DNA of 63,415 bases, filler included, from Stramenopiles sp. TOSAG23-6 (Eukaryota), in the NCBI GenBank assembly GCA_900128565.1. It is 11 parts of 11 records of this genome, joined end to end, with 100 filler letters (N's around TTAATTAATTAA, not from the genome) between each part and the next. Parts side by side here need not be neighbours in the genome. Positions count along the whole stretch, not along the records: positions 11,001 to 21,853 come from LT636289.1; positions 21,954 to 32,790 come from LT636290.1; positions 32,891 to 43,697 come from LT636291.1; positions 43,798 to 54,565 come from LT636292.1; positions 54,666 to 56,042 come from LT639147.1; positions 56,143 to 57,518 come from LT639148.1; positions 57,619 to 58,993 come from LT639149.1; positions 59,094 to 60,468 come from LT639150.1; 3 more parts are not named here. One strand, written 5' to 3'. Below are positions 20,942-63,324 of this stretch, piece by piece. The notes beneath the pieces were generated by a model. The model saw only the letters and a list, made by a program, of their open reading frames with translations. It searched no databases and was not told the origin of the DNA. How positions within the stretch are numbered: position 1 is the stretch's first letter; every line of letters starts with the position of its first letter. Made by a program: the position numbers and the translations under genes.

Positions 20942-21535
20942 ATACCGATAAACACCGACTAAAAACAAACGATCTTCAGATGGAATAAATTGAAGCCTTA
21001 ATAATTTTGAACGTAGTGAAAGTCTCTTATGAATACTATTTGTATTGTTTGTATTGTTTGTATTATTTGTATTATTTGTATAGTTTGTATTATTTGTATT
21101 ATTTGTATTGTTTGTATTGTTTGTATCTTCAAAAATACATAATTTTCTTCTTTTGGATTGGGTTCCATTTGAAATTTTTGTATAACTTTTTAGTTTAAAG
21201 TTTTTGTGATTTATTATTTGATTACAAATTGAATCTTTTGTTGGTTGTAATTGATTATTCATTTGTATTATATTTTCAGTATTTTTATTTTCATCATTTT
21301 TATTTTCATCATTTTTATTTTCAGTATTTTCAGTATTTTCAGTATTTTCAGAATATTTAGAATATTTAGAATATTTTGGATTTTCTATATTTTTCATTTG
21401 ATTCATAAAAATCAAATTTTTATATTCATCTTCAAAACGAAACTGCTGAGGCGCAAACCTGGCATCCATGTATTGTGAAAAAATATTGTAGAAAAAAATT
21501 CGTTAGGTACAGAATTTCGTATGAAACCAAAAAAC

Positions 21536-21568
<33 letters not shown>

Positions 21569-21798
21569 AAATGTATCATGGAAACAAACATCCAACCTTT
21601 AGCATTGTCATTATTAGTACTATTTTGATTATTTTGATTATTATGTTGATTATTTTGATTATTTGAAGAAACTATAGAATTAAATACAGATAAAGTAGCG
21701 ACGCTTCTATTCGAAAGAATCTGGCCAAAGTGAGAAGAATTATCTACAGAACTTTGATATGATTTAAAATATGATTCAAAATAATCTGAACTATGTAC
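20942..21798 (-). CDS. Uncharacterized Asn-rich protein fragment
   Basis: Two open exons separated by element 21468-21577; NNT and ENT microsatellite-derived repeats. Confidence 0.45.
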
Positions 21799-21953
21799 AT
21801 GTATTTTGGAAAAATATTTCAAAATTTACTAAAAAAAAAATTTGTTAGGTACANNNNNNNNNNNNNNNNNNNNNNNNNNNNNNNNNNNNNNNNNNNNTTA
21901 ATTAATTAANNNNNNNNNNNNNNNNNNNNNNNNNNNNNNNNNNNNNNNNNNNN

Positions 21954-22443
21954 ATATTGAGTTATGCTAAAATGTTTACGTACAAATATCTGAGTTCAGG
22001 AAGTGCTGATGGTAATCCATTGAAGCTACTAATTTGATTTTGTTCGAGATACCTATATTTGTAGTGATATAAAAACATTGTCATATTGAGTTATTGAAAA
22101 TATTGAATATAACACATTGTTGACTATATTGAGTTATGCTTAAATTGTTACGTACAAACTATGCAGATTCGGAAGCTCAATTAATCCATGAAAGGATGTA
22201 ATTTGATTATCTGAGAAATTCCTATATTTGTTGTGATATGAAAAACATCGTAATATTGAGTCATTGAAATATATTGCATATGAAATTTTGTTGATGATAT
22301 TGAATTATGCTGAAATTTTACATACAACCTCTCCAGTAAAGGAAGTTTGGGTAATCCATGAATACTTGTAATTTGATTACTGGTGAGATACCTATATTTG
22401 TAGTGATATAAAAAATATTTAAAGATTAAGTTATTGAAAAATG
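21954..22443. repeat. Diverged ~170-bp tandem repeat, about 3 units
   Basis: ATATTGA(G/A)TTATGCT at 21954, 22126, 22297; CCTATATTTG at 22052, 22221, 22391. Confidence 0.8.
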
Positions 22444-22493
22444 TTAAATGTAAAATGTCTTATACGAATAGGCGAAATAATTGATACTGTAAC

Positions 22494-23798: not shown

Positions 23799-24021
23799 GT
23801 TGTGAGATTTATTGTTGTACGGGTGTGTACCGTATAAAACTACTACTGCGATACCCATACCCATGAGCAATTGACCAGTAACTGAAGCTGACTCGATTTC
23901 CAGAATTTCGAATTTCGAATTTCTGTTTTCGAAAAAAACTCAAAAGGATGGCCCAAAGAATCTGATGGATTAAATTTTTGATTTTCTCTTCTTCTTTCTT
24001 TATAAACTTTATGATTGAAAG

Positions 24022-25791
24022 ATGACTGTCGATATTTCGGCTGCCTTAATTACAGCGCTCAATTTAATTGATGGAATCCTTGAAGATGATAATTCTTTAA
24101 TACCTCATAACTTACCAAATTTCAAAAGAGATGTGAAAGTATTCGTTTCAACTTTGATGCCACCAAATTCTGTTGCTGTTCCACAACGTAAGAATAAACG
24201 CCCAAAACTTAGTCAACAACCATATCGTGTCACTTCACGTTTATTAGCCATTCCCGAAGATATGATTATACATATAATTTCATTTATCAGCTGCAAAGGA
24301 CTTGGTGTAATGGAACTCATTTCAAGGCGTTTTTACGGTGGACAAATTGTTGGAGGAAATGTTACCAAGGGACTTGTCCAGTTGTCAGCTGAGTTCCGTG
24401 TCAAGTCCGTTATATCAACAGTTCACCCATTGAATCGATTAACTCTCACGAGAACGTACCGAAAAGGCTGGGGGGAGTGGCTGAATAGTGCCTTGCTTAT
24501 TTCTAATCTACAAAAACATAAATATTGGAAAAGTATGTGTGTTTGGCTGTTCAAACCTGATGATCTCTATATTGATAATTTAGATTATTGTTATCAAAAC
24601 ATATTGACGACCATTGCGATTGTGGATAAAAACACAGTTCGTGTGAATGAGAAGTGTTTAGATCTTTGCCATGTTGATTATTGTCGTTATGAGGGAGCGA
24701 ATGAATTAGATTTAGTGACTGGACGAGCCTCAAAGAGTAAAACATTTCGGATACCAAATGTTATACAAGTTGGAGCTGTTTGGAAGCAATATATGGCACT
24801 GACATCGGATGGCATTGTGTACTCCTGGGGGGGTAGTACGAAGTCGTGGCAAAACGATTCTCTTGGTCATCCAAATAAGGAGATTTTATATCCAAAGCCC
24901 AAACTAGTTGAGGCTCTTCGGGGCAAGAAAGTGATTAAAATTTTGATAAATAGCGAAGAGGAGGTTTTGTATCACTCATATGCTATGGCTCTTACAGATG
25001 ATGGAGAAGTCTATGTGTGGGGAGGATTTAGCGCAGATGAAATGAGACTTGAAAACAATGTTTCTCATGATGTTGTAGAACCTACATTAATGGAAGCCTT
25101 AAAAGGAGTGCATATTGTAGATATTGTATCTGATGTAGGTGACGGTAGCATTCGTGCTATTACTATGGAGGGAGAACTATATGATTGGCATTTTTACCCT
25201 GATATAGACAATATAGACAGTGACGTTCATGACGGTCATGTTAAAAAAATGAAAATTTCTTTTGAAGGAAAGCCGTTGAAAGTTGACAAAATATTCAGCT
25301 ATTCGTACTTCACCTCAAAAAGTGGGGAACTTTATGTTGTTTCCAGAGATGGAGTGGATCGAATTGAAGTGGATCGAATTGACGGGATATCTGGCGAGAG
25401 TATCGTGCAAGTATGTCTCAATTCTGATTATGGTACACTTATAGCTACAGCATCAGGACAAGTATACTACATCATAGAATCAGAAAATAATTCTAGAAGA
25501 GCAAGAAAATGGGGGGGTCGTCTTTCAACAAAACACATTGTAGAAATTCATGCTTGTTCTTATAGGGATAATTGTCGCATGGATTTGCATGGTGGAGGCA
25601 TCGAAAAAAGAAAATTACTGGTGGAGAATTGTACTCATGGGTACTATTCGGAGCTTTCTCGTGAAGAAAATAACCCACATCAGAGTATTCTTCTGTTTCG
25701 TACAATAACAGGTGAGACATTTGTTTGTCATGATAAAAATTCTAGAGATTATTTATTTGATGGAGATGAAATTGTTCGACAGATTTTTTGA
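24022..25791 (+). CDS. F-box and RCC1-repeat protein
   Basis: LLAIPEDMIIHIISFI...ISRRF (F-box-like); ALTSDGIVYSWG, ALTDDGEVYVWG and PKLVEALRGKKV (RCC1 repeats). Confidence 0.7.
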   Translation: MTVDISAALITALNLIDGILEDDNSLIPHNLPNFKRDVKVFVSTLMPPNSVAVPQRKNKRPKLSQQPYRVTSRLLAIPEDMIIHIISFISCKGLGVMELISRRFYGGQIVGGNVTKGLVQLSAEFRVKSVISTVHPLNRLTLTRTYRKGWGEWLNSALLISNLQKHKYWKSMCVWLFKPDDLYIDNLDYCYQNILTTIAIVDKNTVRVNEKCLDLCHVDYCRYEGANELDLVTGRASKSKTFRIPNVIQVGAVWKQYMALTSDGIVYSWGGSTKSWQNDSLGHPNKEILYPKPKLVEALRGKKVIKILINSEEEVLYHSYAMALTDDGEVYVWGGFSADEMRLENNVSHDVVEPTLMEALKGVHIVDIVSDVGDGSIRAITMEGELYDWHFYPDIDNIDSDVHDGHVKKMKISFEGKPLKVDKIFSYSYFTSKSGELYVVSRDGVDRIEVDRIDGISGESIVQVCLNSDYGTLIATASGQVYYIIESENNSRRARKWGGRLSTKHIVEIHACSYRDNCRMDLHGGGIEKRKLLVENCTHGYYSELSREENNPHQSILLFRTITGETFVCHDKNSRDYLFDGDEIVRQIF

Positions 25792-26233: not shown

Positions 26234-28562
26234 ATGGCAAGCTTCGTTCCTGGACAGGGTTTGGTCCGACCTGCTGTTTCCCAAAGCTCAACGAGTCTAT
26301 CGGGACCCAATAGAAACAGTTTGCAAAAGACTCCGAAATTGAAATTTAGTAGTAGTGCGAGTGCATATTGGTCACCAAATACTGCAGGCTCAGCATCTGC
26401 AATGCCAACGTCCTCTCCCCCTTTACGTCCTGCTACGGGGGGACCAAATATGGCACAAACTTCAAAATCATTTATACCTAAAAGCCAAGGATATGTACCA
26501 CCGGCTCCTTTTACTCCTAGCGCCAAGGAATTTGTTCCAGGGGGTGTCAAAGAGTTTGTTCCTTCGGATGCCAAAGAGTTTGTTCCAGGGGGTGCCAAAG
26601 AGTTTGTTCCAACTGGTGCGAAACCTAACGCGACTTTCACGGCAAATTCTGGTGTATTTGTCCCTGTTACTACTAAAAATCCATCGAGCAGTTCTTTACG
26701 TAGTTCATCCGAAGCATCGGAGTTTATACCTGGGAATAGTGCACGTATAAATAAACCTGGGAAGAATGTAAATTCTGTCCCAGTCTTTGTACCTGGAAAT
26801 AATGTACCTGTGAATAAGCTTCCTGGAAATTACGTTCCTGGAAATTACGTAGATTCTCAACCTGTCTTTGAACCGAATGAAACTCCACGTGATTTTTTCG
26901 AATTACCACCATCTGTGCCTGCTATTCAGCCTCGTGTGATTAATTCGCTTTATATGCCTGATCATTTTAGGGATTATTTTGCTCACCAGTCAATGCATTT
27001 ACATGCCCAAGTTTCCGCTGGAGATGCTCGTTTAAAGATGATTCCTAAAGGATATGATTGTATACTCCCCCTTGACATACCAAGAGAAACAGGTGGTAGC
27101 TCGATAAATCCGCTTCCATATCCATCGTCCATCTTTAAGGTTGTTCGATGGAGTGATGTATGTTTTCATGATTATTTTCTATCAAACTTTTGTCTTCATA
27201 CGAAATTTTGTNCCNAANAAAAAAAANAAATTTTCGACATTTTGTTCAAAATACATGGGAGCGTGCTTGCCTTGCGGCGTGTCGATAAGTTGAGAACAAC
27301 GAACGAGATCCTTACTATAGTATCTAAGGCTTGGAAGCGTGTGCAGCACCCATGTGTTGTCTCGCTACAAGGCTCATTTATTGCAACAAATGGAATTTTT
27401 TTCTTACATGAATATTATCCTGGAGCTCAATCTCTCCTACAAAGATTCTTCACTCAACACCCTCAAAGTACTAGAGATATGATTCCGGAACCCTTGCTTT
27501 GGCGTATTGGTTGTGCCCTTGCCTCAGGTTTAAGAGCCATTCATGGAAATGGTTTATCGTCTAGATGTTTAAATCTAACACGAGTAATTATTTCAGGTCA
27601 TGGACGTGCCAGATTAGCAAATTGTGGCATAATGGATGTTTTAGAATTTGAATCAAGAAAAAGTCTTCAGCAGCTTCAAGAAGAGGACATTTTAGGTTTG
27701 GGTAAGGTACTTTTACAACTTTCTCTCCGAAGTCTCACTGCAGATCAAAATTTACAAAAGTCAATGTACGGTTTCATCATGCACTGTATATCCATTCTAC
27801 ATTTTGTAATTTCAAAACTAACAAATTTCAAATTTCTGAGATATTTTTTCAAAATAAAGGGATGCAGTATCACAAAGGTATTCGAAAGAATTAACATCTA
27901 TCATTGGAACATTAGTCTTAAAACGAGCTTCTATCTTTGACGTCGCGACATTGATGATGCAACATGCAGGTATGGCTTTGACTGAGAGTTTATATCAACA
28001 TACTGATTCATGTGAACGTCTTCTTCACAGAGAGCTAGAGAATGGTCGTCTTTTGTTGCTCATGTTAAAATTGGGCACTTTAAATGAACGACCTGCCAAT
28101 CCCAATTCAAGTAATGATAAAAATTCTTGGTCTGAAACTGGAAATCGGTACATGTTAAAATTGTTTAGAGATTATATTTTTCATCAACTAGATGCTAATG
28201 GTCGTCCTGTTGTCAATTGGGGTCATATTGTATCTTGTCTGAATAAATTAGACGCAGGAAGTTCTGAGAAAATTGTATTGATGTCACGGGATGAAAAATC
28301 TTTAATGGTGGTCTCTTTTGCAGATGTTCGTCGGGTGATTTCGGAAACGTTTGCAGAATTAACTCAACCAGCTTCACAAGAATACTATGACTTTAAACGG
28401 CGCGGTCATCATGGACGGGATGGAAGTATGCATAGATCCAGGTCAAATCGTATGGATCATGGGAGAAGAGCGTCGGGGATAAATACGAGAATGACAAGTA
28501 TGAACTTGAATGGTGGATATAATCGTAGTCGACGAGGTTCCAGTGGACGAGGTAGGTACTAA
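26234..28562 (+). CDS. PAN3: PAN2-PAN3 deadenylase subunit PAN3, 3 exons, about 711 aa
   Basis: PAM2-like AKEFVP repeats, pseudokinase, RELENGRLL...WSETGNRYMLKLFRDYIFHQ...HIVSCLNKLDAG; introns 27158-27256 and 27766-27859. Confidence 0.93.
27766..27859 (+). other. Canonical GT-AG intron with family-like 3' region
   Basis: AT|GTACGG...AACTAAC...ATATTTTTTCAAAATAAAG|G GAT gives QKSMDAVSQRYS. Confidence 0.8.
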
Positions 28563-28870: not shown

Positions 28871-30460
28871 TTACCCCTGTCGTTGCTGTGGTGCACATTT
28901 GATAATATCATCTACACGTAAAATCATTTCTGCCGCTTCAGCAGCTGATAGCAATACTTGCTCCTTCAATTTCAAAGGTTCACGAACACCAATTTCTGAC
29001 ATACAACCAATAGACCCTTTGGCCATATCTAGACCAGCAGTCGTTTTACCGTTGAAATGAGCATTACGCAATTGAGTGACGAGTTCAGCACTGTCGAAAC
29101 CAGCATTATCAGCAATTGTTGCCGGCATCTGACGAAGTGCACGAGCAAATGCTTCGATAGCAAGTGACTTCTTACCAGCAACCTTTGGTACCAATTCATC
29201 ACAGGCTTTTGCCATCAAAGTTTCTGCACAACCACCACCATATGTCACTCGCGGTTCTTTTACAGTTGCGAGAAGTACACACAATGCATCATGTAAAGAT
29301 CTTTCAGCCTCATCAAGTAAATGTTTACTTGCACCACGGAGAACAATACTACATGCAGAACCAGATTTACAACCAGAAAAACGAATACATTTGTCCTCAC
29401 CAATCATAATCTCTTCAATCAGATCACACGTACCTAAACTGACAAGCTCTGGATGTTCAAACGTAGAACATATTTCTGCACCAGTGACTGCAGCTAAGCG
29501 TTCAATACCATCAAAGTCTGCGTGTTCAATCGACATAACACCAGCATCAGCAAACAACTGCTCAGGCCAGTTATATATGAGCTGTCGATTGATAAATACG
29601 TTTACTCCATGTTTTACAATTTTGTCGACTTTACCTTTCATTTTCTTCTTTTCTGCTTCTTCAATTAATGCAACGCTTTCCATATCTTTGACGCGTACAC
29701 GAGCTCCATATATCTTGATTTTATCAGTGTCCATTGATGTGTTTGCAATCATAATTTTTGCGTTCTCGATACGTTTCGGACATCCTACGCCAATTTTTTT
29801 AGACATGACAAATCCATTATCAAGATAAGACTCCTCTAGTCGGCCCCCAGGTTTTTTAATGATCTGAATGTTATCCAAATTATTAGATCCTTTTAATCGT
29901 AGGATTGCTTCAACAGCAAGGTTAGCAAAATGGTCCTTTTCGTGGGTTAAAAGTTTAGAGGAGAGGGTAGTCAAGGCTATTTGAGTCAAATCCTTTCGAA
30001 AATTAGCAGAATTTTCACTGTTATCAACTGACGATTCTCGCAGAGCTGTGCGAGCGGCCTTGGTAGCCATGCGAAATCCATCAATAATTGTCATAGGATG
30101 GATACGTTGCTGAACAAGTTTCTCTGCTTCACGCAAAAATTCACCTGCTAGAACGACAACACTGGTAGTCCCATCACCAACTTCACTATCCTGATTCTTA
30201 GAAATATCAACAAGTACTTTAGCCGCGGCGTTATCAATGTGAATCGAACGCAAAATAGTAGCGCCATCATTAGTTACAGTCACTGGTCCAGATCCGGCAT
30301 CGGGGTTTCCTACAGATTGAAGGATCTTATCCATGCCTTTTGGACCAAGTGTCGTACGGACTAGGTCCGCAATGGCGATGGCCCCGACAAACGATGCGAG
30401 ACGGGCATTCTCACCTTTATCGACCTGTGTACCACCTGCTAATACTGCTGCTTCTGCCAT
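28871..30460 (-). CDS. CCT2: T-complex protein 1 subunit beta
   Basis: [57 protein letters not shown]; intronless CDS. Confidence 0.97.
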
Positions 30461-31353: not shown

Positions 31354-31388
<35 letters not shown>

Positions 31389-33278: not shown

Positions 33279-36200
33279 CTATAAACTAGAAACATCATTA
33301 TTATTACCCTTTGTTGAAGGAGTATTAAATAAAATATGTGATAAAGAACGTATGCCATCTAATGAGGCTTCAAGTTGAACACGACATGTTTCTCTTTCTT
33401 TTTCATTTTGTTTTATTCGTAATCCTTCCGAAGACAGACTCTTTACTAATTTATCTTTACGGTATAACAAAACTTTCTTAGCATTATCATCCAGACTCTC
33501 ATCTTTAAGCTTTTCATTCAAGTGTAGTATTCGTCTTTTGAGGTCACGTTTTGTTCTTTGTAATTCACTATTTGTCTTATTTAGCTTTGATTCATTTCTG
33601 GCATGCATTGCTACATTTGCTAAATGCATATATTGCTTATTTGGATTAGGATTACCTTGCTTAATGTTAGCTTTCAGTTCATTATATAAATCCGTTGCGT
33701 TTGCTTTTATAGATAATATTTCATCAACTTTTCTTTTAAGAATTATAAAACGAGCTTTGGCTTCTTCTAACATTGCAATCTGACTTCTCCAACATCTTCC
33801 CTGGTAAGCGACTTGACTACTCAGTTGCTGCCATTTGGATAATTCTATTGGTGTCATATGTATTTTGGAAAAATATTTCAAAAAAAAATCGTTAGGTACA
33901 AAATTTTTCTAAAAAAAAAAATTACAAAAAAAAAATTGAAAAAAAATAAAACATGCATCATTAGGATAGACTTTTGCTTTCTTATTATTACTCAACCCAA
34001 ACCCTAACTCTAACCCTTGTTGCACAGACACTTTCTTTTTTGACAAATGTAAATTTTTCCCTTTTATATTTTCTTCTGAGATTTTATTAATTGTATTACT
34101 TTTGGTGTATTTGAGAAGTAAATCAGTCACTGTAGCCAACAATGGGTGAATGAACGTATTTCCTTTTATCAATAAAAGATTTGGAATTATGTTTGAAAAT
34201 GGGACAAGTAAAGCTTTCTTTGCTCTTGAATGTGATTTGGACGTTTTCAATGATGATTCAAGATCATCTTGTACAGTAATGATTCCATGTATTTTGGAAA
34301 AATATTTAAAAAAAAAAAACTAAAATTCGTTAGGTACAAAATTTCGTACGAAAAAAAAATTCGATTTTTTTGTTAAAAAAAAAAAAAACGTACATGTGTA
34401 CTAATAAAATTTCTATCGCACTCGCTAGACGCATCATTACATAATTGTGTTGTATGTTTTTGTATCAAGCTACAATTATACCGTAACGCACTTTGAACTA
34501 AATGTATTTTGGAAAATTTTTTTTTTTTGTAAAATATGTTAGGTACAACATTTCGTACGAAAAAAAAATCGATTTTTTTGTTTAAAAAAAAAATAAAACA
34601 TACATCTATCACACCCTCCATAGTCTTCTCTGCTGATTTTCTTTCCAGTTGTACATGATCATACTTTATTTCTAATTTTTTATGTATTCTACGTAAACGT
34701 TGTTGCTCTACAATGGCAGCATCAAGTTTTCTCTGCTCACGTTGTATATGTATATTTGTTGTTTGTACCGTCTTTTCAAATGAATGTACTACCGATTTTG
34801 TATATGGTATTCCTAATTTAGTGCATGTGGCTTTATTCAGCGATTCTTGAAGTAAAGTGTAATTTTTTGAGCTTATTAAATGAGTTGCTTTACGTGTATT
34901 TTCAGAAATTCTGATTTTTATAAGATTATGAAATTGTTCCTTTAACTCTGATTCTATATCATCATCCATAATGAATGTACTAATCTGATCACGTACCGCA
35001 GAACATGTATTGCGAAAGAAAGAAAAATTCAAAAATTTGTTAGATATAAAATTTTGTATCAAAAATAAAAATAAAAATATTGAAAAAAATAAAAAAAAAA
35101 TAAAACAAAATAAAAAATAGTGAAAAAAATAAAAATAATGAAAAAAACGTACGTGCACATTTCACAACATTATCAGATAATACAGACGTATTAAATAAAT
35201 TTCTAATAAAAGACACACAATTTTGCATTGTGGATAAACGACTTTGATTTGTTGAATGCAAAGATTTGCTTTTTGTGTTTTTTGTGCTTGAAAAGTAGCT
35301 ATTTGAACAAATTTTTGTTTCAATTTCCGATGCATACTTTGGAAACCAATTTCGAGTTTTAACCAAATCTTTTAAGGCCGAGTTTGTAATTCCTCTCAGT
35401 CGAATACTGGTTGATTTAATACTTGACAGTGTTGACATTATTAGTTGTTGTTGTTTTGAATTACATTGAGTAGAATGAGAGTCTAACATTTCTAAACCAG
35501 TAAACACGCCAAGATTTTTGCTTTTTTTCTTTCTTATTTTGTTTGTGTTGGTTTGAGGCATTTTGTGCCATTCAAGATTGATTGAATAGTTACTTTTTCC
35601 AGTTGATGTAATCAATTTACATTTCTTTTGAGATATGTTTTTATGATGTTTAGAATTAGGTTCTAGGAATACAACTGCCTCTCCCAGATTATCATGAATA
35701 TCACCACCTACAGTATCCATGTATTTTGGAAAAATATTTCAAAAAAAATCTAAAAAAAATTGTTAGGTACAAAATTCCATACGAAAAAAAAATAAATTCG
35801 ATTTTTTTGTTTTAAAAAAAAAATATAAACATACATTCGCACCTCATCCATTGATGTCGCAATAACTCGAATATGTAACGCTGGTCGTTTCATTTGCACA
35901 GTCTTTTTTACATAATTTGTTGAATGTACATCATGGATGTATTTTGGAAAAATATTTCAAATTATTTTTTGTTAGGTACAAAATTTTTATAAAAAAAAAA
36001 TCATACANAAAAAAAAAAAAAACATACACAAATTTCGACATTTTTGATGTAAACCAAAAGACTTGATTCCAACAATTTGATAATGTCCAGAGTGACTTTG
36101 AAATTAATGCATTTTCTTCGAAATCTCCTTCACAACGAATAGCATATATTTTGGAAAAATATTTCAAAAAAAAATCTAAAAAAAATTGTTAGGTATAAAA

Positions 36201-39200
36201 TTTTCAAAAAAAAAAAAAAAACTAAATTCGAAATTGAAAAAAAATAAAACATATATGATCAAACCTTCTTTTGAAAACATCGGATGTAGAATGACACTGA
36301 TCCGATTCTTCTTCTTTAGATGCCGAGTCAAATAGTATTAATACAACATAAGTTTCTTTACCATTTAGATCAAATCTAACTTCGCCTGAGGGATCTTTCA
36401 TGTCTTGTTTTGTTTCTTTTGTTTCTTCTAATACATTTTTAATGTCTTGTTTTGTTTCTTTTGTTTCTTCTGATACATTTTTAATGTCGTTTTTACTTTC
36501 TTTTGACAAATTTTCAATAATTACCTTTATATCAAAATCAGGTAAAGATAATGAAACATCTTCATTTTGTATAATTACGTTTTCTTTTTTAGTGGATCCA
36601 ATATGTTTTTTATGCGGTGTAAAACGAATTGTATCTATCGTTGTTGATGTATTTGCTGTTTGAAAATGTTCAGCTTGAAGTATTGTGAAAAATATTTTTT
36701 TTTTTTTGAAAAAAATTGTTAGGTACAAAATTTCGTACGAAAAAAAAACATTGTAGGTAAAAAAATTCAAATTTTGAAAACGTACAACATCTTCTCCTCC
36801 AAGACTTTTTACCTCTTCTAATGTCGGTTTCGCATACAACATATATTTCATAACTATTCTATCATGTTCTGTAGCTGCATCAAGTATTTGGTCAACAGAA
36901 GATTTTGCTGTAGCTGTCAAATATGTACCATGTTTTTTCCAAACATCTTCAGCGAGAGCATATATTTTGGAAAAATATTTCAAAAAAAATCTAAAAAAAT
37001 TTGTTAGGTACAAAATTTACTATAAAAAATAAATTCGAATTTTTTTGTAAAAAAAAAATAAAACATACATCAGTCAATTCCTGGATAAGTTGATGTTCTA
37101 CAAGTTTGACTTTTTCTAAATGCAAAAGCTTTTGTTTTGTATTACGTTTAAAACAGTTTCGAAGTGAAGTTTTTATATCCAATGTTTCATCCACTTCAAT
37201 ACTGGAACTACTATTCTTCATGATATCATTGTTATTATCATTGTCATCTTGCACATTACTATTCGATGATGATTGAATGCCATCTTCAGTATTTCGAAGT
37301 TCATGTTCTTTTTTCCATAATGTTTTTTCCAATGATTTCACTGCGTTTCTTTGCACTTCTCTCACAGATGATAAATCAACTTTTTTGACTGTTGAAAATT
37401 TTGCTTTATTCTGGGTTTTCTGGGTTTTCTGGGTTTTCTTAGCTGCAAGTAAAAGATCTTTTTCTATTTGCTCTAAAAGCTCAGATTTCATTCTACTTAC
37501 TGAGACTATTTCATTCTTTTCATCTATTTCATCATTTATATCATATACATTTGCTTCATCAGTAATAAGTAGTTTATTCAATTCAAATCTGTTTTTACTA
37601 ATATCTTTAGAAAATGATGATACTGTATTTTCATGTATTTTGGAAAAATATTTCAAAAAAAATTGTAAAATTGTTAGGTACAACATTTCGTACGAAAAAA
37701 AAATTCGATTTTTTTGTTAAAAAAAAAATAAAACATACATACAATTTGCGAGATTTACATAAATGCATAGCTAAAGCAAGTGCAATAATAATTTTCTCCT
37801 GAAGTAGTGGTAGAATACTTTCTATTAAATGAAGATCAAAATTTGAAATACTGAGAGAATTGTGTTCAGTATCTGCATGTATTTTGGAAAAATATTTAAA
37901 AAAAAAATTTGAAAATTTGTTAGGTACAAAATTTTCAAAAAAAAAAACATTCGATTTTTTTGTAAAAAAAAAAATAAAACATACATTCATGTCATCTTTT
38001 GATTTTCTATTGAAATGTTTCATACCTTCCATTGATTTAATTACAGATTGTCTTAAACTCTCAATGTCTTCATTAATAATTAAATTATTTGAACATATTT
38101 TTTCGTGGTCAAGAAATCGTAAAGTTTTCATTGCAAATTCTTCAATTGCTTTTACAACAGATAAACACTCAATTCTGACAGCTTCACGAATTGGTTTTAT
38201 CAATTTTTCTGTTTCTTCAGATGCTCTTTTCCATAGGGTTTTTCGTAATTCTATTCCTTTATTTTTAATAATTTCTATTGTACATTGCTTGATTTCATCT
38301 AACACAAGTATATTTTCTTTATGTGTGGCATCCATCTTGTTTAATTTTGCGTTTTCATTATCTACCTCTTCTTGATTACACAAACCTGCTAGCTTCTCTT
38401 CTGCTTCTTTACGAGTTTCAACATTATTTTCAAGCCAAATTTTACTTTCATCTGCTTCTTGTAAAAGATCAATTACAGATTCACGAATTTCAATAGACTT
38501 TGTAGAAAATTCTGAAGCTTTTTTCTGCATCGTATTAAATTCCTCTTGACATGCATCAATAATTTGATTTTGATTATTTATTTGATTGTTAATATCATTT
38601 AACTTTTGTTCTTGTGATAAATTATCGGAAGTAACATTCTTTTTTGTAGTATTTAATGATGTAAGTTCTTTTTCCAATAGACCTGCTTTCTTTAATGCAC
38701 CATATCTTTTGGAAAAATATTTCAAAAAAAATTCTAAAAAATTTGTTAGGTACAAAATTTCGTATAAAAACCAAAAAAAAAAAAAAATTCGTTTTTTTTT
38801 TTACCGAAAAAAAAAAAATAAAACGTACAGGACTTGGATCACCATTTATTTTCCGTAGTTTTGCACTATCCAATTCAATCCGAAGTGACTTAATTTTATG
38901 ATTTAAATCTTTCATTTGTTTTACTAAAGTTTTCTTTTCATTCAAATCTGTTGATTCTTCATTTTCTGCTGTTTGTTCTGCTTCTTCAAGTTGGTCTCGT
39001 GCAAAATTCTTTGCATCGTTTATGTGATCAACACTACCCTCAGATATTTCTCTAATTTTATCTTGTAAACGATTTCTCCCCTCAGTTTCATTTTTTAACT
39101 GTTGGTTCAACATTTGTCTCAATGTATTTTAGAAAAATATTTAAAAAAAAAATTGAAAAAATTGTTAGGTACAAAATTTACTATAAAAAAAAATTCATAC

Positions 39201-40768
39201 AAAAAAAAAACATAAAACATACATGTATTAACTTTTGTTTCTTCTTTTGGTATATCCTGTTGTAGTTTTTCAAGTGATTTTTTCAATGTTATAATTTCTT
39301 CTTGAACGATTTTCAATTGATCTTTGGCACCTCTTGTCTTAAAACCACCATGTAATAGTAGAAAAAATATTTCAAAAAAAATACCAACTTGTTAGGTACA
39401 TTTTGTTTTTCATGAAAAAAAAAACGTTAGGTACAAAATTCCGTAAGAAAAAAAACAAACTCGATTCAAAGCAGCAGAAGCAGCGACTGAATCACTTTGA
39501 TCAGTCATTCGACATTGTTGTTCAATTTCACGAAATTTCGTGTCATAGCCGACTGAGACTTTTTCTAGACCAGCGATTGCTTTTTCAAGTTCAAGTTTTA
39601 ATTTTTTATTGTTTTGTCGTTTTTTCATTTGTCTTTCTTTTTCAGATTTTAACATGACGGAAACTTTCACAATTTTATTTCTTTTTTCTTCTATTTCAGA
39701 TTCTAATTTTGCAATCATGTATTTTGGAAAAATATTTCAAAAAAATTTCAAAAAAATTGTTAGGTACAAAATTTTTTTACCAAAAAAAAAAAAAATAAAA
39801 TAAATTCGATTTTTTTGTAAAAAAACAAAATAAAACATTCATAAGATTACAACCTTTGACAGTATCAATCGATTGAGGTTTTAGACTTTTTGCCTTTGCT
39901 GCGGAACGAAGTTCAGAACATATATTGTGAAAAATATTTTTTTTTTTACCGAAAAAAAAAATCGTTAGGTACAAAAGTTCGTACGAAAAAACAAATAAAT
40001 TCGAAATTTAATTTTGAAAACGGACGCGCCGCTTCAATTTCATTACGCATATAATTAAATGCTACAATTTGTGCATTCATGTAATTTTGGAGAAATATTT
40101 TTTTTGTAGTACAAATGTTTTGTTAGGGTCCTAGGTATGAAATTTTTATATAATTTTTTTTTTTTGAAATTTTTTTTTTCTTTGAAAGTAATGATAAAAA
40201 CATACATATTTTTTCGTATTCGTGTTATTTGTTCGGTATTTCGTGCAACTCGACTTCTTTCCAATTTTTCAAATCGCTCAAAAGCATTGTCTAAGAATGT
40301 AGTACTTTCAGCTGATAACTTTTCCGCAAGATCAAGAGAAATTGATGTTGGTGTTCCTTCATCTTCTTCATTTGTCGATTCTACAAATTTAGACAAGTTG
40401 GTTAGTTTTTTAAATGAAGATGACAAATCTCTCATGGATTTTAATTTCTTTTCCCCTATTTTTTCAAAATCTTGTAGCATATACTTTGTTGTATCTTTCC
40501 TATCCTCTATTTCACGAGACATTGTACCCAACGTCGCTTCTTGTGCATCAGCATAACCATATTCTAGATCCCATTTTTCGGTCGTGGTGTCAACACGTTT
40601 TTGAATTGAATCTTTGGAGTCTCGCATGTCCATTGCGACCCTTGCTAGTTGTATATACCTTTCTTCGGCTTCCTTTGGTGGTAAAAGACGAAAACGTTTG
40701 AACATGTTTGTATCGTCATCTTCTTCAGTGGTTTTTATATTACTAATAGTAACACTTTTCTTCTTCAT
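33279..40768 (-). CDS. Large coiled-coil protein, 18 exons, about 1862 aa
   Basis: Removing 17 family introns (1901 nt) from 7490 nt leaves 5589 nt, with phases matching at every junction; E/K-rich helical sequence. Confidence 0.75.
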
Positions 40769-41841: not shown

Positions 41842-42000
41842 AAGATGATCAATACAATTGAACAACTTTCAATGTTACAAAATAAAATATGGTACACATT
41901 GTCGTTGTATTTATCAAATGATTAAAATATTTTAGTTTTTTTACGAATATTTTGTTTTATAAAACAAAAATAATAATCAAAATTGATTTTTTTTTATACA

Positions 42001-43130
42001 TCAATTCAAATAGTTCAATGGTAACCATCCAGAATTTTTAGTTCTTTTATTTCTTCCTTTACACCATCCATCTTTTCGATACTCAATAATTTCAATTGTA
42101 TCACCAGCTTTAATTGCCAACTCATATAGTATTAAAAAAAATTCAAAAATGTTTTACTATTAGGTACAAAATTTTGTACGAAAAAAAAAAAAATCGAAAT
42201 TGGTTTAAAATTTTTTTTTTTCGTTAGGTACAAAATTTACTATGAAAAAAAAAATATGTTGATAAAAAATTGAAAAAAAAAAAAAAAAAAGTACATCTTC
42301 TCTCTGAGGTTTATATTCCCATTGTGCTTCTTTTATATCATGACCAAATTTTGATTTTGACTTTTCTGAATCTCCTTTGGTTTTGACTTTTTTGGCCTTT
42401 TTGGGATTCCGAATTTCGGATGTTTTCCCAGTCGATTTGTCTGCATTTTCAAGTTGACTTTCAATTGTTTCCGTTTCATCAATTTCTTTCTTTTCTCTAC
42501 GCTTTTTTTTAGTACGTTTTGATGATTTGCTGGAATTTGTATTTGTACCAGCAGATGCTCTACCAATCATATACATGCTAAAAGAGATAAATAATTGGAT
42601 AGTTAATAGAATGAGACACAAATAGCTATATAACCCTAACCCAATTGAATTTGTTGCCATTTTCATAATGGTACTAATGCATAGTAATATCCATAAAACC
42701 AAATCAATAAAGACAAAAACCTTTCGAGCAATTGTAGATTCAGAGAATTTTTCCCAATCTTTTTTACAGTAACAATTTATTGGATACTTTCCTTTTGTGC
42801 AACCTTTCACTAGGAGTACATTAATGGCTACAACATTCCATAACAAACAAAAGTACTGTGAAAAAATATTTAAGATTCATTTGGTTTTGTTAGGTACAAA
42901 ATTTTCATTTTTTTTTTGGTAGGTACAAAAGTTTCATAATAAAATAAAACATACAAAAGTGAAACTACAAAAGACCACATCAACCAAGACCGGAGACCTT
43001 GGTTACTATCATTGAGCCTTGCCATTAAAAATATTGAATAAATAATAACCAAAACACGAACTGTACAATGAATAGAGAAAAGTAAAGGTGTAGCATTACG
43101 AGTTTCAGTGTCAATAATCTTTTCATGAGT
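42001..43130 (-). CDS. Four-TM protein with C-terminal SH3 domain
   Basis: Four hydrophobic helices; AQWEYKPQRED|ELAIKAGDTIEIIEYRKDGWCKGRNKRTKNSGWLPLNYL across intron 42124-42294. Confidence 0.7.
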
Positions 43131-43237
43131 ATGTATTTTGGAAAAATATTTGAAAAAAATCTTTAAAAATTTGTTAGGTACNAAANTTACTATNAAAAAA
43201 AAANTTCGATTTGTTTGTAAAAAAAAATAAAACATAC

Positions 43238-43626: not shown

Positions 43627-43797
43627 ATGAAATTTGGAAAAATATTTCAAAAAAAAAAAAAAAATGTTAGGTACAAAATTTCGTACGAAAAAAAAAANNN
43701 NNNNNNNNNNNNNNNNNNNNNNNNNNNNNNNNNNNNNNNNNTTAATTAATTAANNNNNNNNNNNNNNNNNNNNNNNNNNNNNNNNNNNNNNNNNNNN

Positions 43798-54565: not shown

Positions 54566-54665
54566 NNNNNNNNNNNNNNNNNNNNNNNNNNNNNNNNNNN
54601 NNNNNNNNNTTAATTAATTAANNNNNNNNNNNNNNNNNNNNNNNNNNNNNNNNNNNNNNNNNNNN

Positions 54666-56142: not shown

Positions 56143-57432
56143 CTGTTAAATGTTGTTCATGCTCAATGTTATGTCCAATTGTTAAAGCTGATTCCATTGC
56201 AATACTTCTGCGTTGATTAAGATACTCCAAGGATTCTTTTTGATTTTTATCTGTCATATCTGCAACTAAAACACCGACTGAATCCTTATACATTTGAAAA
56301 TCAGGATGCTCCGTCGAAATTCGTGTTTTCTCCATTGAAATTAACATTGTAACCAAATCTTTTGTTTTGCCTAATGATTTCTGAATAAATGCTTTTGTTA
56401 AATTAATAATTTCGTCTCGTAATGAATCAAAAACAACCATACCAGACACTGAAATAGACTCCGCAATATTATTAAGTTCCGTATAACAATCATCTACACA
56501 TGTATTTTGGAAAAATATTTCAAAAAAATCTAAGTTATTCACAAGTGACATGTCATTAGGAAAACTGACTAAAAATATTTCATTAAGACGTGCTCCACCT
56601 ATCACATCATCTCCAGAAAATGTATTGTGAATTTATATAAAAAAGAAAACAAATATCAGGTACAATTGTTTTTGAAAAAAATTGAAAAAAAATTGAAAAA
56701 AAATTAAAAAAAAATTGAAATTGAAATTGAAAAAAAATTGAAATTCAAGAGTAAGAAAGACACAAAACAATTAGGTACAAGATTTTGTACTAAAAAAAAA
56801 CATACCATCTTCTCCAGTCCCGTATATAATTTCTTGTAACTTTTTGTGATAGACGTATTGTGAAAAAATATTTTTTTTTTGATTTTTTTTGTTAGGTACA
56901 AAATTTCGTATGAAAAAAAAAATAGACAAAAAAATGAAAAAAACATACACACATGCCGTATCGATGACATGTCTCTGTTTCTCATCTTGACTTTCTAGCT
57001 TTGGTATAGAATCCAAGTCCTGTTGTTTCTGGAAGATGAATTTTTTCACTTTTTGTTCAATTTCTGGTAAACATGAAAAAATATGCTTTTTTAATACAGA
57101 ACTCAATTTTGTTACTAAAACTTCTGTACCCCCTCCAGGTTTTGGCAAATTAGAATATATTGTGAAACATTATTTCAAAACAACATTCTTTAGATTTGGA
57201 TTATTTTTTTTGAAAGAAAAATAAATTTTAAAAAAAATAGTTAGGTACAAAATTTTGTATGAAACAAAATAAATCTGAAATTCATGATTAGATTCGAGAG
57301 TAAAGCATACATATTGAGGATGATTTGCAAAATATGCTTTTTCTGATTCCCATTGCTTATTGATAGCTTTATCATTTTTGATATCTTTTTGACTTCGATT
57401 TACCACAGGAATCCAACCCAATTTCAACGGGA
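56143..57432 (-). CDS. Dynamin-related GTPase fragment (end of GTPase domain and middle domain)
   Basis: PLKLGWIPVVNRSQKDI, YFANHPQY|SNL, LKKHIFSCLPEI, IGGARL, ISTEHPDF; several family introns. Confidence 0.8.
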
Positions 57433-59440: not shown

Positions 59441-61114
59441 CTAGATAATTGAAAGTCTCTTTTTTTTGCCTCTTTGAAGCATTCAGATGTAGTATAGGTT
59501 CTTCACTTGAACAACTGGTCATCAAAGATATCCCTGCAGTGAGGGATTCCTCAATATCATGCTTTCTTTTAGTATTCGACCTTACGGGGGCTTTACTCGA
59601 ATTATTCTTTTTGCATTTCACGGGAAATGCAAGTGTATAATACTCATCATTACTCCCATATACTTCACACCCATATCGATTCTCATATTCAAATTAAGAC
59701 TTCCATTTCGCACCGCAGGTAACATTATTTCGTTGCCTCTATCACTAAGTCACTAATTTATGCGTATAAGAAATACTGCAAATCGCGTGATCACTTAGAT
59801 ATTTTTGTGTAAGTGTGTTCTTTTTTTAAGTAACGTACACAGGAAAGAAAACTAAAAACCCTAACCCTAACTTAATCCTAAACCAGCGNNNNNNNNNNNN
59901 NNNNNNNNNNNNNNNNNNNNNNNNNNNNNNNNNNNNNNNNNNNNNNNNNNNNNNNNNNNNNNNNNNNNNNNNNNNNNNNNNNNNNNNNNNNNNNNNNNNN
60001 NNNNNNNNNNNNNNNNNNNNNNNNNNNNNNNNNNNNNTTTCTCGATTCTCAGGTTTTGCACGTAGTGCTTTGCACACCCATTCCCGCAACCAGTCATCAG
60101 TGACTGTGGGCCAAATTTGCCGAACAGTTCGTGGGAAAGTTGCTGGGGAAGAAGGTGCAGTAGCCTTAGACAACATCATGCGTGATATTGCTCCTTCAAT
60201 GGAGAAAGTGCCTGGGTATGTTCGAACGACTCGCAAGTACGTGATAAATAAAGCTTTTTCTATGCGTAGTGCTTTGCACACCCATTCCCGCAACCAGTCA
60301 TCAGTGACTGTGGGCCAAATTTGCCGAACAGTTCGTGGGAAAGTTGCTGGGGAAGAAGGTGCAGTAGCCTTAGACAACATCATGCGTGATATTGCTCCTT
60401 CAATGGAGAAAGTGCCTGGGTATGTTCGAACGACTCGCAAGTACGTGATAAATAAAGCTTTTTCTATGNNNNNNNNNNNNNNNNNNNNNNNNNNNNNNNN
60501 NNNNNNNNNNNNTTAATTAATTAANNNNNNNNNNNNNNNNNNNNNNNNNNNNNNNNNNNNNNNNNNNNACAATTGGAGGAAAAAGTTGTTGATATCCACG
60601 GAGATGAGGTATTATCACAGATTCCAAAGGCGGAGCATCTTGATAGCACAGACGCCCATCTGAAGCGTGCAAAAAAGCACCTCAAAGCAGGTCGTCTTAT
60701 ACATGCTGGTGTTGATTTTGCACGTGCTGAAGATCACGATGCTGTTTTAGGACTGGGTAGAGCTTCAATTGAATGGAAAAAGATTAATGATTTACTGGCA
60801 AATAAGGAATATGTCTTGGCTAATGAAGCTATTGAAAAAGTAGAAAAANNNNNNNNNNNNNNNNNNNNNNNNNNNNNNNNNNNNNNNNNNNNNNNNNNNN
60901 NNNNNNNNNNNNNNNNNNNNNNNNNNNNNNNNNNNNNNNNNNNNNNNNNNNNNNNNNNNNNNNNNNNNNNNNNNNNNNNNNNNNNNNNNNNNNNNNNNNN
61001 NNNNNNNNNNNNNNNNNNNNNNNNNNNNNNNNNNNNNNNNNNNNNNNNNNNNNNNNNNNNNNNNNNNNNNNNNNNNNNNNNNNNNNNNNNNNNNNNNNNN
61101 NNNNNNNNNNNNNN

Positions 61115-61890
61115 ACAATTGGAGGAAAAAGTTGTTGATATCCACGGAGATGAGGTATTATCACAGATTCCAAAGGCGGAGCATCTTGATAGCACAGACG
61201 CCCATCTGAAGCGTGCAAAAAAGCACCTCAAAGCAGGTCGTCTTATACATGCTGGTGTTGATTTTGCACGTGCTGAAGATCACGATGCTGTTTTAGGACT
61301 GGGTAGAGCTTCAATTGAATGGAAAAAGATTAATGATTTACTGGCAAATAAGGAATATGTCTTGGCTAATGAAGCTATTGAAAAAGTAGAAAAAAATGAC
61401 GTCAATAATGCTAAAAAGCACTATTCTATTGCATTACGTGCGGATCCTGACGCATCGGTTAAGTCAGAATTTAAGATAGTTCAAACACTAGCAAAACTAA
61501 TTAAAAACACAAACAAGTGGTTAGATAAATCGTATAATCATCGAGCATTGAAATTAATCATTGAAATTGAAGAAATATTGAAAAATCTAAATATTAAAAC
61601 TCATCGAATTAACGCAAAGGTTTCATTGTTAGCATGTCGTGGAGAATCTGCTGTTAAACATCATGAAATAGCAATTACTCGTTGCGAAAATGCTTTGCGT
61701 TATTTCGAAGAAAAAATTCCTGGACTTCATGTTGATCCGTTCCAAATCATTTTAGCTAGAAAAACTCTAGCTAAAGCTCATATGAATGACTTTAATTTTG
61801 ATGAAGCTGTTGTTGAGTTCAGGAAAGCATTAACACTGTTAGAAGAAAATAATGCTAGTAATGAAGAAAAGAATGAAATGAGGCATAGTT
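61115..61890 (+). CDS. TPR protein, DNAJC3/P58IPK-like fragment
   Basis: TPR-like helices (AKKHYSIALRADPD, FDEAVVEFRKAL); first 280 nt duplicated at 60569-60848. Confidence 0.5.
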
Positions 61891-62096
61891 GTATGTTTTA
61901 TATGAATTTCTAATTTAATTTTTTTTTCATACGAAATTTCGTANNNNNNNNNNNNNNNNNNNNNNNNNNNNNNNNNNNNNNNNNNNNTTAATTAATTAAN
62001 NNNNNNNNNNNNNNNNNNNNNNNNNNNNNNNNNNNNNNNNNNNTTGTACCTAACAAAAATTAATTTTTTTTTTTGAAATATTTTTCCAAAATACAT

Positions 62097-62246
62097 GTGT
62101 GTCTCAGACGATATGAAAAGGAATTATGGTCACCTTTGGCGTATAAAACTTTGATTCGCCGATTAGGATTAACCCTGACACCACCACAAGAACGTGTTTT
62201 TGCTGCTGTATATAATTGGAGAGATGAAATTGCTCGTCGTGAAGAT
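62097..62246 (+). CDS. EXOSC10: Exosome component 10 (Rrp6) exon at the start of the HRDC domain
   Basis: VCLRRYEK...QERVFAAVYNWRDEIARRED. Confidence 0.7.
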
Positions 62247-62352
62247 GTATGTTTTATTTTTTTTTCAACAAAAAAATCGAATTTATTTTTCATACGAAAT
62301 TTTGTACCTAACGATTTTTTTTTTTTTTTTTAAATATTTTTCCATAAAACAT

Positions 62353-63324
62353 GTTTTGGGGACTCTTAGAGATCAAGTTTGTTATCCTGAATCTACAGAA
62401 ATTGCTAGGCAAATGTCTGAAGATGAATTAAGATCTTTACTTCGTGAAGTCGATTTAGAATATATTATGAACCAAAGAACACCAAAACAAAAATCAATAA
62501 TGTATAAAAATGATGTTGATGATGAGATTGTGGATTGGGAAATGAGATTATCTATGGGAGAACAACAACGATTAGCATATGTTTTCATTATTTTTTGTTT
62601 AAATGTTTTTTTGTAGTTAATTTTGTACCTAACAAAAAAATATAAAATTTGAAAAAACATATTTTTTCACTATATACGATGGCACGTCTTTTTTATCATC
62701 ATAGTAAAAAACAAAAAACGACATTGGATGGTACCCCTAACCCTATAATACATGCGAAATTTGCAATTTTAGATGAATGTACGTCGGGGGTGAGTGCGGC
62801 AATGGAAAGACGTTTATATAATATATGTGCTAAGCGCAATATTACATGTATAACAATATCACACCGACCAGCGTTGGCCAAATTTCATGATGTTGTACTT
62901 AATATTTTAAAAGATGGAAAAGGCGGATGGACCTGGACAAAAACGAATTCGTTGAGACAAAATAATGATAACCCTAATCCTAAAGACATCAAAAGCTCTT
63001 CAATTATTGTCGAACAACCTCATTCTCAAGGAAAACATTCTCAAGGGGATGATGATACGGATAGTGCAGGTAATGCTTTAGCTGAAAGAAAATGTTTGCA
63101 AGAAAGAAGTCAAGTATACATGGATGCATGGGAAGAACGACAAAGTTCTAATGATAAAAAAAACATAGAAAATCAGAGAGGGTTTTTATACGGAAAATCT
63201 CTAACTCATGTAGGCATTACAAAGAGAATCTATGATGTATTATCAAAGTTTTGTCCGAATGGCTTTGATCTGCATGACAGTGAAGTGAGGAGAGTTTTAT
63301 TACTGATTGGTCTTGTTGTGTCAA
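62353..63324 (+). CDS. Peroxisomal ABC transporter subfamily D fragment
   Basis: VLGTLRDQVCYP, LSMGEQQRLA|MARLFYH, FAILDECTS, CITISHRPAL. Confidence 0.9.
62577..62677 (+). other. AT-AC member of the intron family
   Basis: TTA GC|ATATGTTTT...TTTTGTACCTAAC...CACTATATAC|G ATG GCA restores QQRLAMARLFYH. Confidence 0.75.

Follow-up and report, generated by a model that had tools for sequence, protein, structure and literature searches.

Introns of one repeat family, mostly with GT..AT ends and probably introners, in the genome of Stramenopiles sp. TOSAG23-6

Introners, sets of similar short introns lodged in unrelated genes, have been described from marine algae (Micromonas pusilla, Aureococcus, and Chrysochromulina), and the sections on them in PMC11282704 and PMC9860276 include elements that bring one splice site of their own and obtain the second from the duplicated target. 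Here, we analyze 63,415 bases from Stramenopiles sp. TOSAG23-6 (GenBank assembly GCA_900128565.1), which are not one stretch of chromosome: 11 contigs are joined by N44-TTAATTAATTAA-N44 linkers, and we refer to the whole as the window. Judging from the DNA, nearly all introns of the window are copies of one repeat that starts with GT and usually ends with AT.

As outlined in those sections, the marine-alga introners resemble the window introns as similar short introns in unrelated genes, with short inverted ends and, presumably in the window as well, a target-site duplication and a restored mRNA length; as in Chrysochromulina, the element would supply the 5' site, with the other site in the duplication. 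The algal duplications are 3-9 bp and go with canonical AG ends, whereas here the duplication would be 2 bp and the end is usually AT; in addition, all 41 introns delimited here belong to one family. The introns of Fritillaria borealis derived from miniature inverted-repeat transposable elements (Henriet et al. 2019, as summarized in PMC11282704) are mainly AG-AC and AG-AT. There, as here, most introns are non-canonical; the Fritillaria introns bear the marks of terminal inverted repeats and target-site duplication, as the window introns may, and their removal by an adapted U2 spliceosome was reported; the Fritillaria 5' end is also non-canonical, whereas the window introns keep a 5' GTATGT and depart only in the 3' dinucleotide. 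The introner elements of Amoebophrya, as characterized in parts of PMC7789003, are likewise repeated non-canonical introns with direct repeats at their borders and inverted ends. In Amoebophrya, however, no terminal pair dominates, the direct repeats are 3-5 nt, and the inverted repeats form hairpins of 8-20 nt, in contrast to the dominant GT..AT, strong 5' and branch consensus, 4-nt inverted ends, and lack of a significant hairpin here. Euglenid non-conventional introns share non-canonical borders, repeats resembling target-site duplications, and pairable ends, but the account in PMC11282704 has them without GT or branch signals and dependent on structure, unlike the strong signals and lack of stable structure in the window. 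By analogy, the family would represent introners with non-canonical ends, of a known architecture, and the apparently new part is a 2-bp AT footprint that gives a non-AG end.

Literature searches found no report combining GT-AT ends with introners. Among the matches listed on GT-AT introns or splices, the titles point to Drosophila, bamboo, wheat, shark, and benchmarking, and the papers retrieved for the marine stramenopile (MAST) group MAST-3 with intron and splice were unrelated. Among the MAST single-cell genome papers, the searched text of PMC5778133 has "intron" twice, not on splice sites, and "splice" nowhere, and that of PMC8163842 has no "intron"; the main text of PMC9860276, a paper whose supplementary tables list the species with introners, mentions neither "stramenopile" nor "MAST", and MAST-3 is not named in the introner texts searched.

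A profile built from the delimited introns identified 55 copies of the family in the 63 kb (nhmmer). The repeat is roughly 100 bases long and has the form AT/GTATGTTTT..TCGTACGAAATTTTGTACCTAAC..ATATTTTTCCAAAATAC-AT/G, where slashes mark the exon borders. RYATGTTTT occurs 37 times against 8.7 expected, a count reached by 0 of 100 shuffles, and the branch motif GTACCTAAC, with at most one mismatch, occurs 65 times against 8.2 expected, again higher than in any shuffle. Pairwise identity between copies has a median of 0.67 (range 0.45-0.91), and the members form a continuum from consensus-like to diverged (e.g., the introns at 27766, 40205, and 35152). The copies have in common blocks without a known splicing role, such as AAAAAAATCGAATTT and the palindrome TTCGTACGAA, and their host genes are as different as MAPK, PAN3, ABCD, LMF1, phosphoesterase, TMC-like, CEP19-like, and a large coiled-coil gene. 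The repetition is most evident at 33700-40300 on the minus strand, where exons are interrupted every ~100-700 nt by a nearly identical element. Ten of the 55 copies are truncated at contig ends, as a high-copy repeat is expected to break assemblies.

We delimited 41 introns at the boundaries proposed in a first-pass annotation of the window; ends are tallied over all 41 and splice signals over 40. The introns are 86-171 nt long and begin with GT (36), AT (2), GA (2), or GC (1); they end with AT (32), TT (4), AG (2), GT (2), or AC (1). After intron removal, the frame stays open over 90 nt on either side in 39 of the 41, and read-through would meet a stop in 33. The motifs on which the first-pass annotation had based its claim of relaxed terminal dinucleotides are all present at or next to the positions it gave: the donors GCATGTTTT (33956), GCGTGTTTT (59151), GAATGTTTT (39840), ATATGTTTT (36254 and 62577), GTCCGTTTT (40025), and GTTTGTTTT (39460), and the acceptors CTT (8490, 19745, 36678, and 42851), CGT (12502 and 56853), TAC (62677), and AAG (27859). 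The GC donor at 59151 lost its 3' part in a contig gap and was not tallied. One further donor, GATACATTTT at 21577, is present as a motif, but an in-frame GT donor, GTTTGTTTC, likewise preceded by AT, lies 12 nt upstream at 21589; no such in-frame alternative, GT or GC, lies within 30 nt of the GA donor at 39840. To the extent that DNA and protein homology can tell (39/41 frames and the three junctions described next), the relaxed ends are real.

In 25 of the 41 introns, the flanking AT repeat makes GT..AT inseparable from AT..AC by DNA alone. The register was read from three introns that lack this AT symmetry and sit in conserved protein motifs. The MAPK intron (GTACATTTAC..CACAATACAT, 18910-18817) has GT as its pre-donor bases, which leaves no ambiguity with AT..AC, and splits HLASVTHR/DLKPSNILLN such that CGT/GAT encodes the R/D of HRDLKPSN; in chains of MAPK1, the upstream exon aligns to residue 146 and the downstream exon from 147, and MAPK7 has VIHR at this place. 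The ABCD intron (ATATGTTTTC..TATATAC, 62577-62677) splits the codon GC/G, which gives Ala in GEQQRL-A-MARLFYH, the same residue as in the homologues P0127 and P0132, and the other register would give Thr. At the diverged GT..AG member in PAN3 (27766-27859), the junction encodes a Met equivalent to Met660 of human PAN3 (NLQKAM660/E661), and the other register would give Arg in place of the conserved Met. In addition, the Pfam phosphoesterase profile runs 288/289 across the intron at 14005-13915, with 289 as residue 1 of the next exon. An AT..AC reading of the whole family (AT+GTATG..ATAC), equivalent in 25 of the 41 introns, was rejected as a general rule because it would give HHD for HRD in MAPK, Arg for Met in PAN3, and Thr for Ala in the ABC protein. 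The homology junctions therefore place the 5' cut directly before (G/A)TAYG and make GT..AT a real intron type. A one-base slide is formally possible where neighboring bases are identical. Pfam searches of the exons beside the other introns with mismatching flanks found no domain spanning a junction, and the registers assigned to those introns would follow by analogy.

The variable 3' end follows the upstream exon. In 29 of the 41 introns, the dinucleotide that ends the upstream exon is identical to the one that ends the intron (permutation p 0.0004). Among the introns with non-AT ends, the match holds in 4 of 9 (p 0.0006), as TT/TT at 19846, 36785, and 42954 and as GT/GT at 56948. Such locus-specific matches suggest a target-site duplication; the count is small, and the whole genome would be needed to make it secure. 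Non-AT ends are enriched in the sub-family with a ..TTCACAATAC tail (6/11 vs 3/30; Fisher p 0.006). The inverted ends read GTAT..ATAC, these 4 nt being the only consistent part, and the two introns that start with A each show T at -3 (Fisher p 0.018, from two introns only). AT precedes and G follows the intron in 25 of the 41. A 3-bp ATG duplication was considered and rejected because the G at +1 is constant whatever the first base of the next exon, which is G in only 25/41. Since the last dinucleotide repeats the end of the upstream exon, the variation of the 3' end is explained without U12. The first-pass annotation thus recognized the relaxed 3' ends correctly, but the origin of the introns as copies of a family and the repeat of the exon dinucleotide had escaped it.

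The splice signals are strongly conserved. The 5' site reads GTATGT or GTACGT followed by T's (GTATGTTTT or GTACGTTTT in 25 of 40), with G at +5 in 35 and T at +6 in 38. The branch motif GTACCTAAC is found in 34, and its core is CTAAC in 38 and CTAAT in one, the 40th being masked by N; 27-45 nt (median 39) separate the branch A from the 3' end, and T-rich tracts are visible in the intron alignment. GTATGT and CTAAC are classical U2-type signals. Compared with U2-type introns, the window introns have the GT or GC 5' end (GT 36 and GC 1 of 41) with a GTATGT/GTRAGT-like extension and a CTRAY/TACTAAC branch upstream of a T-rich tract; the AG 3' end occurs in only 2 of the 41. U12-type introns have the 5' consensus RTATCCTT and the branch TCCTTAAC roughly 10-26 nt from the 3' end, and they tolerate varied 3' ends. 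Neither the U12 5' site nor a branch near the 3' end is found here, and the U12-like TCCTT at +4..+8 occurs in none of 40 introns. The window introns are like U12 introns in having A or G at +1, an extended 5' motif, a conserved branch, and several 3' dinucleotides; they are unlike them in having RTATGTTTT in place of RTATCCTT and the branch GTACCTAAC at 27-45 nt. All 41 are of one type, including the two GT..AG members, and as the sole intron type they do not form a rare minority class. A search of the window for small nuclear RNAs (snRNAs) gave no Rfam match at the gathering score or at E up to 1. The first-pass annotation had proposed hybrid U2/U12-like signals and a divergent minor or remodeled major spliceosome. 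Its U12 half is unsupported by these counts, and its "remodeled major spliceosome" is a fair description of what would be needed: a major-type (U2) spliceosome with a tolerant 3' site is the likelier fit than a minor one.

On balance, we favor the reading that these are spliceosomal introns of one introner family, for which a small non-autonomous DNA element is the most likely vehicle. Alongside the family, frame restoration, flank repeat, and three homology-fixed junctions reported above, we infer transposition, a 2-bp duplication, and U2-type processing with a tolerant 3' site. The element would carry a yeast-like 5' splice site (GTATGT then TTT) and a branch site (GTACCTAAC, core CTAAC) and would end in ..AAAATAC or ..CACAATAC. 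It would insert mostly at AT, and sometimes at TT or GT, with duplication of those two bases. Splicing would then cut immediately 5' of the G in GTATG and, at the other end, two bases past the terminal ATAC, so that the element leaves together with one of the two dinucleotide copies and the coding sequence is as it was before insertion; the intron end would be AT usually, and TT or GT where the target differed. The 3' cut would be set by its position beside the conserved ATAC tail and not by AG. The distance from branch A to 3' end varies over 27-45 nt, and the cut is therefore not measured from the branch; AG lies at or near the cut in two members (27859 and 13691), which indicates that AG is still accepted. 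More tentatively, and we regard this extension as possible rather than probable, the AG rule may have been replaced in the MAST-3 lineage by a default of GU..AU with a ruler-type cut two nt past the AAUAC tail. Under such a rule, the AAUAC tail could pair with the 5' GUAU (G1 with C-3, or A1 with U-3), and any dinucleotide copied from the insertion target could serve as the end.

Several observations weigh against a mobile DNA element that leaves a 2-bp duplication. The frame is not restored in two introns: 20844-20941 is 1 nt off, and 56853-56948 is followed by an exon of 47 nt, too short for the test. The flanking repeat is only 2 nt and the inverted repeat only 4 nt, and 12 of the 41 introns have no flank match. 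Of the 29 matches, 25 are AT/AT, which could equally be explained by a preference at the insertion site or exon end, and only 4 are locus-specific. Assembly error could account for the single GA, GC, and AT donors. In the window we saw no full copy that is antisense or clearly between genes: orientation relative to the flanking open reading frame (ORF) is the same for 36 copies, opposite for 0, and unclear for 19 (n=55). A DNA transposon would not usually leave such a pattern, which spread via RNA would fit as well. No transposase was seen in the window. Among viral contigs, the 23-nt intron core of the family had 0 loci, and among metagenome contigs one gapped intron pattern had 75 loci with a single match each; none of these 75 has more than 2 branch motifs or more than 1 tail motif, short of the density of the family, and they were taken as chance matches.

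The alternative that fares best, which we still consider unlikely, is that these are old, vertically inherited introns with strict signals as in hemiascomycete yeasts. The AT before and at the end of the intron would then be recognition signals, and the AT..AT flanks would act in a changed spliceosome as AG/GT..AG/G does elsewhere. The near-invariant 5' site and branch, the predominance of AT/AT among the flank matches, the sense orientation of all copies, and the continuum from consensus to diverged members (27766, 40205, and 35152) agree with such a history. It does not account for blocks without a splicing role common to introns of unrelated genes, for the 10 copies at assembly breaks expected of a high-copy repeat, or for the locus-specific TT/TT (three) and GT/GT (one) matches.

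Spread through RNA has a still lower probability in our judgment. Here, excised introns would reverse-splice into AT^G sites and be copied back to DNA, making the family introners without a DNA transposon. Copies that lie within genes and strictly in sense (36 same, 0 opposite) and the junction context of AT before and G after in 25/41 would be natural outcomes, and fungal introners are so interpreted in the relevant part of PMC9860276. Reverse splicing, however, makes no duplication, which leaves the locus-specific TT/TT and GT/GT matches unexplained, and the covariation of +1 and -3 also fits inverted ends.

A divergent minor (U12-like) spliceosome turned into the main system, as the first-pass annotation proposed, is improbable. 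It would accommodate A and G both at +1 (AT..AC at 62577 and AT..AT at 36254), the variable 3' end, and the T-rich stretch after RTATG. The absence of TCCTT from all 40 introns, a branch core of CTAAC rather than TTAAC, the distance of 27-45 nt from branch A to 3' end, and the classical U2-type character of GTATGT and CTAAC argue against it.

We give little credence to the odd termini (GA, GC, and AT donors; AC, GT, and TT acceptors) being assembly or amplification errors of the single-cell kind on a plain GT..AT rule. The assembly does contain scattered N bases and many gaps, and each odd donor type occurs only once or twice, but the conserved Ala at the AT..AC intron requires exactly those ends, the TT (4) and GT (2) ends recur and in 4 of 6 cases repeat the last bases of the upstream exon, and T stands at -3 in both A-start introns. 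Least plausible of all is non-spliceosomal excision, whether structure-guided as in euglenids or by DNA-level elimination with a 2-bp repeat as in ciliates: a 2-nt direct repeat with one copy kept, non-AG ends, and GTAT/ATAC ends that pair in 2 of 6 minimum free energy folds (3-4 bp only, with a 2-nt 3' overhang) would suit it, but none of the six introns folds more stably than shuffled sequence (z -1.4 to +0.45), and the GTATG and CTAAC signals and strict sense orientation are needed by a spliceosome and not by DNA excision. Hairpin-guided splicing of the family was set aside on the same folds.

Gene finders trained on GT..AG junctions would misbuild most genes with several exons in this lineage, and gene counts and completeness would come out too low. 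The public EukProt model P0121, the one met here, is a case in which standard annotation fails to recognize these introns: within 62247-63324 (+), it reads through the intron at 62247-62352 and skips the exon bearing the ABC signature. Under the introner reading, a heterotrophic marine stramenopile would join the lineages that owe most of their introns to mobile elements, with the insertion footprint still legible in the final two bases of the intron. If RNA data bear it out, a main intron class ending in U and not G would be a natural test of 3' choice in the second step of splicing, and a ruler-type 3' site would account for the harmless colonization of coding sequence by a transposon that leaves a 2-bp footprint.

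Table 1. Family introns and contig-end copies in the window, with positions counted along the whole stretch
Feature	Position	Strand	Remark
GT..AT intron, 94 nt, GTACATTTAC..CACAATACAT, MAPK	18817..18910	-	HR/D junction, MAPK1 146/147
AT..AC intron, 101 nt, ATATGTTTTC..CACTATATAC, ABCD-type transporter	62577..62677	+	Ala as in P0127 and P0132; missed by P0121
GT..AG diverged member, GTACGGTTTC..AAAATAAAG, PAN3	27766..27859	+	Met660 of human PAN3
GT..AG intron (apparently ends CAG), 86 nt, phosphoesterase gene	13691..13776	-	In frame
GT..TT intron, CEP19-like gene; pre-donor AT, no flank match	8389..8490	+	
GT..AT intron, GTACGTTTG..TTATTACAT	10578..10675	+	
GT..AT intron, PAN3, contains N bases	27158..27256	+	
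GT..AT intron, ABCD gene; read through by P0121	62247..62352	+	
GT..GT intron, pre-donor GT, locus-specific repeat	56853..56948	-	Next exon only 47 nt
GT..AT intron	43131..43237	-	
GT..TT intron, pre-donor TT, locus-specific repeat	42851..42954	-	
GT..AT intron, 171 nt, branch block in tandem duplicate	42124..42294	-	
GT..AT intron, diverged branch region (GACCCTAAC)	40079..40205	-	
GTCCGTTTT..CACAATATAT intron, pre-donor GC	39920..40025	-	
GA..AT intron, GAATGTTTT	39717..39840	-	No in-frame GT or GC within 30 nt
GTTTGTTTT..CTATTACAT intron, two branch motifs, pre-donor GA	39350..39460	-	
GT..AT intron	39122..39222	-	
GT..AT intron ending AAAAGATAT, pre-donor CT	38702..38828	-	
GT..AT intron near family consensus	37877..37984	-	
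GT..AT intron	37633..37738	-	
GT..AT intron ending AAAATATAT	36960..37068	-	
GT..TT intron, pre-donor TT, locus-specific repeat	36678..36785	-	
AT..AT intron, ATATGTTTT..AAAATATAT; A at +1 with T at -3	36144..36254	-	
GT..AT intron, pre-donor GT	35937..36027	-	
GT..AT intron	35719..35834	-	
GT..AT intron, 148 nt, branch ATATCTAAC, pre-donor AC	35005..35152	-	
GT..AT intron	34502..34603	-	
GT..AT intron	34287..34393	-	
GC..AT intron, GCATGTTTT	33858..33956	-	
GATACATTTT..ACAT intron (first-pass call), LMF1; GT donor at 21589 in frame, preceded by AT	21468..21577	-	
Family intron, LMF1, off frame by 1 nt; in frame at 97 or 100 nt	20844..20941	-	
GT..AT intron, LMF1 C-terminal domain	20391..20490	-	
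GT..AT intron, GTATTTTTT	19968..20064	-	
GT..TT intron, pre-donor TT, locus-specific repeat	19745..19846	-	
GT..AT intron, phosphoesterase domain	13915..14005	-	Pfam profile 288/289
GT..AT intron	13373..13472	-	
GT..GT intron, GTACATTTT..TACAATACGT, pre-donor TT	12502..12594	-	
GT..AT intron	11322..11414	-	
GT..AT intron, GTACTTTTT, pre-donor AA	7063..7165	-	
GT..AT intron, TMC-like gene	6453..6547	-	
GT..AT intron	4708..4794	-	
5' part of family copy, donor GCGTGTTTT (59151), cut at contig end	59094..59154	-	
Family copy cut at contig end	10845..10900	+	nhmmer match and linker position
Copy cut at contig end	8..78	-	nhmmer and linker positions
Copy cut at contig end	11001..11064	-	nhmmer and linker positions
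Copy cut at contig end	21796..21853	-	nhmmer and linker positions
Copy cut at contig end	32690..32740	+	nhmmer and linker positions
Copy cut at contig end	43632..43696	-	nhmmer and linker positions
Copy cut at contig end	61885..61943	+	nhmmer and linker positions
Copy cut at contig end	62044..62101	+	nhmmer and linker positions
Copy cut at contig end	63321..63415	+	nhmmer and linker positions

Some individual copies deserve mention. The LMF1 intron at 20844-20941 (-) is the only well-flanked member out of frame; it measures 98 nt under the family rule, the in-frame lengths being 97 nt, with ..ATACA at the end, or 100 nt, with ..ACATGT, and its frame break may reflect an indel in the assembly or displacement of the 3' site. 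The branch block (..AAATTTTGTACCTAAC/T) is doubled in tandem in the introns at 42124-42294 (-) and 39350-39460 (-), and the former owes its length of 171 nt to this duplication. Many copies (e.g., 34287-34393 (-)) have a perfect 10-nt palindrome, TTCGTACGAA, immediately upstream of the branch motif, and the family consensus has near its 5' end a T-run/A-run pair, TTTTTTTTTACAAAAAAA, with no known splicing role. Diverged or partial copies with one end unplaced lie at 16373-16406 (+), 56497-56531 (-), 56771-56805 (-), and 57208-57314 (-); the first is between two convergent ORFs and may be an intron of an untranslated region or a fragment.

The host appears to be a MAST-3 marine stramenopile, to which the EukProt label "GSMAST32..." points: it belongs to P0121, the only protein identical (100%) to the ABCD exon. 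For CCT-beta, the best named matches near the query length are stramenopiles at ~70-71% identity, and a metatranscriptome protein reaches 89%. Parts of 33300-43200 are matched by 5 RNA and 7 DNA sequencing runs; 7-12% of the sampled words of this region are present in several seawater metatranscriptomes, and the best-matching DNA runs are small. The genes of the window include TFIIH Ssl1, a PIH1 CS-like domain, a TMC-domain protein, a phosphoesterase, a protein kinase, an RCC1-like protein, CCT-beta, Mss4 with PDZ, and LMF1, all of eukaryotic types, and the window also encodes PAN3, a CEP19-like protein, and an ABCD-type transporter. Protein searches with two lineage-specific exons found neither spliced transcripts nor relatives: exon 37985-38701 gave no match at E up to 1e-5 (526 candidates), and exon 11416-12501 gave 0 matches among 1.84 billion representatives.

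The linkers are at 10945, 21898, 32835, 43742, 54610, 56087, 57563, 59038, 60513, and 61988; their spans (10901-11000, 21854-21953, 32791-32890, 43698-43797, and six more) contain stops in all six frames. Contigs 1-5 are each ~10.8 kb, and adjoining blocks of the window need not be neighbors in the genome. GC content is 25-39% apart from one GC-richer giant ORF, a single open frame of 3,623 codons at 43746-54617 (-) with GC 0.44-0.48, strong negative GC skew, no Pfam match, and no family intron. The only tRNA call by ARAGORN (46726-46813, Thr agt) falls inside this frame and is probably spurious. Intron load is very uneven between genes: the coiled-coil gene at ~33300-40300 has 17 family introns, and CCT-beta (28871-30472 (-)), TFIIH Ssl1 (579-1865 (+)), and the RCC1-like gene (24019-25791 (+)) are uninterrupted single ORFs.

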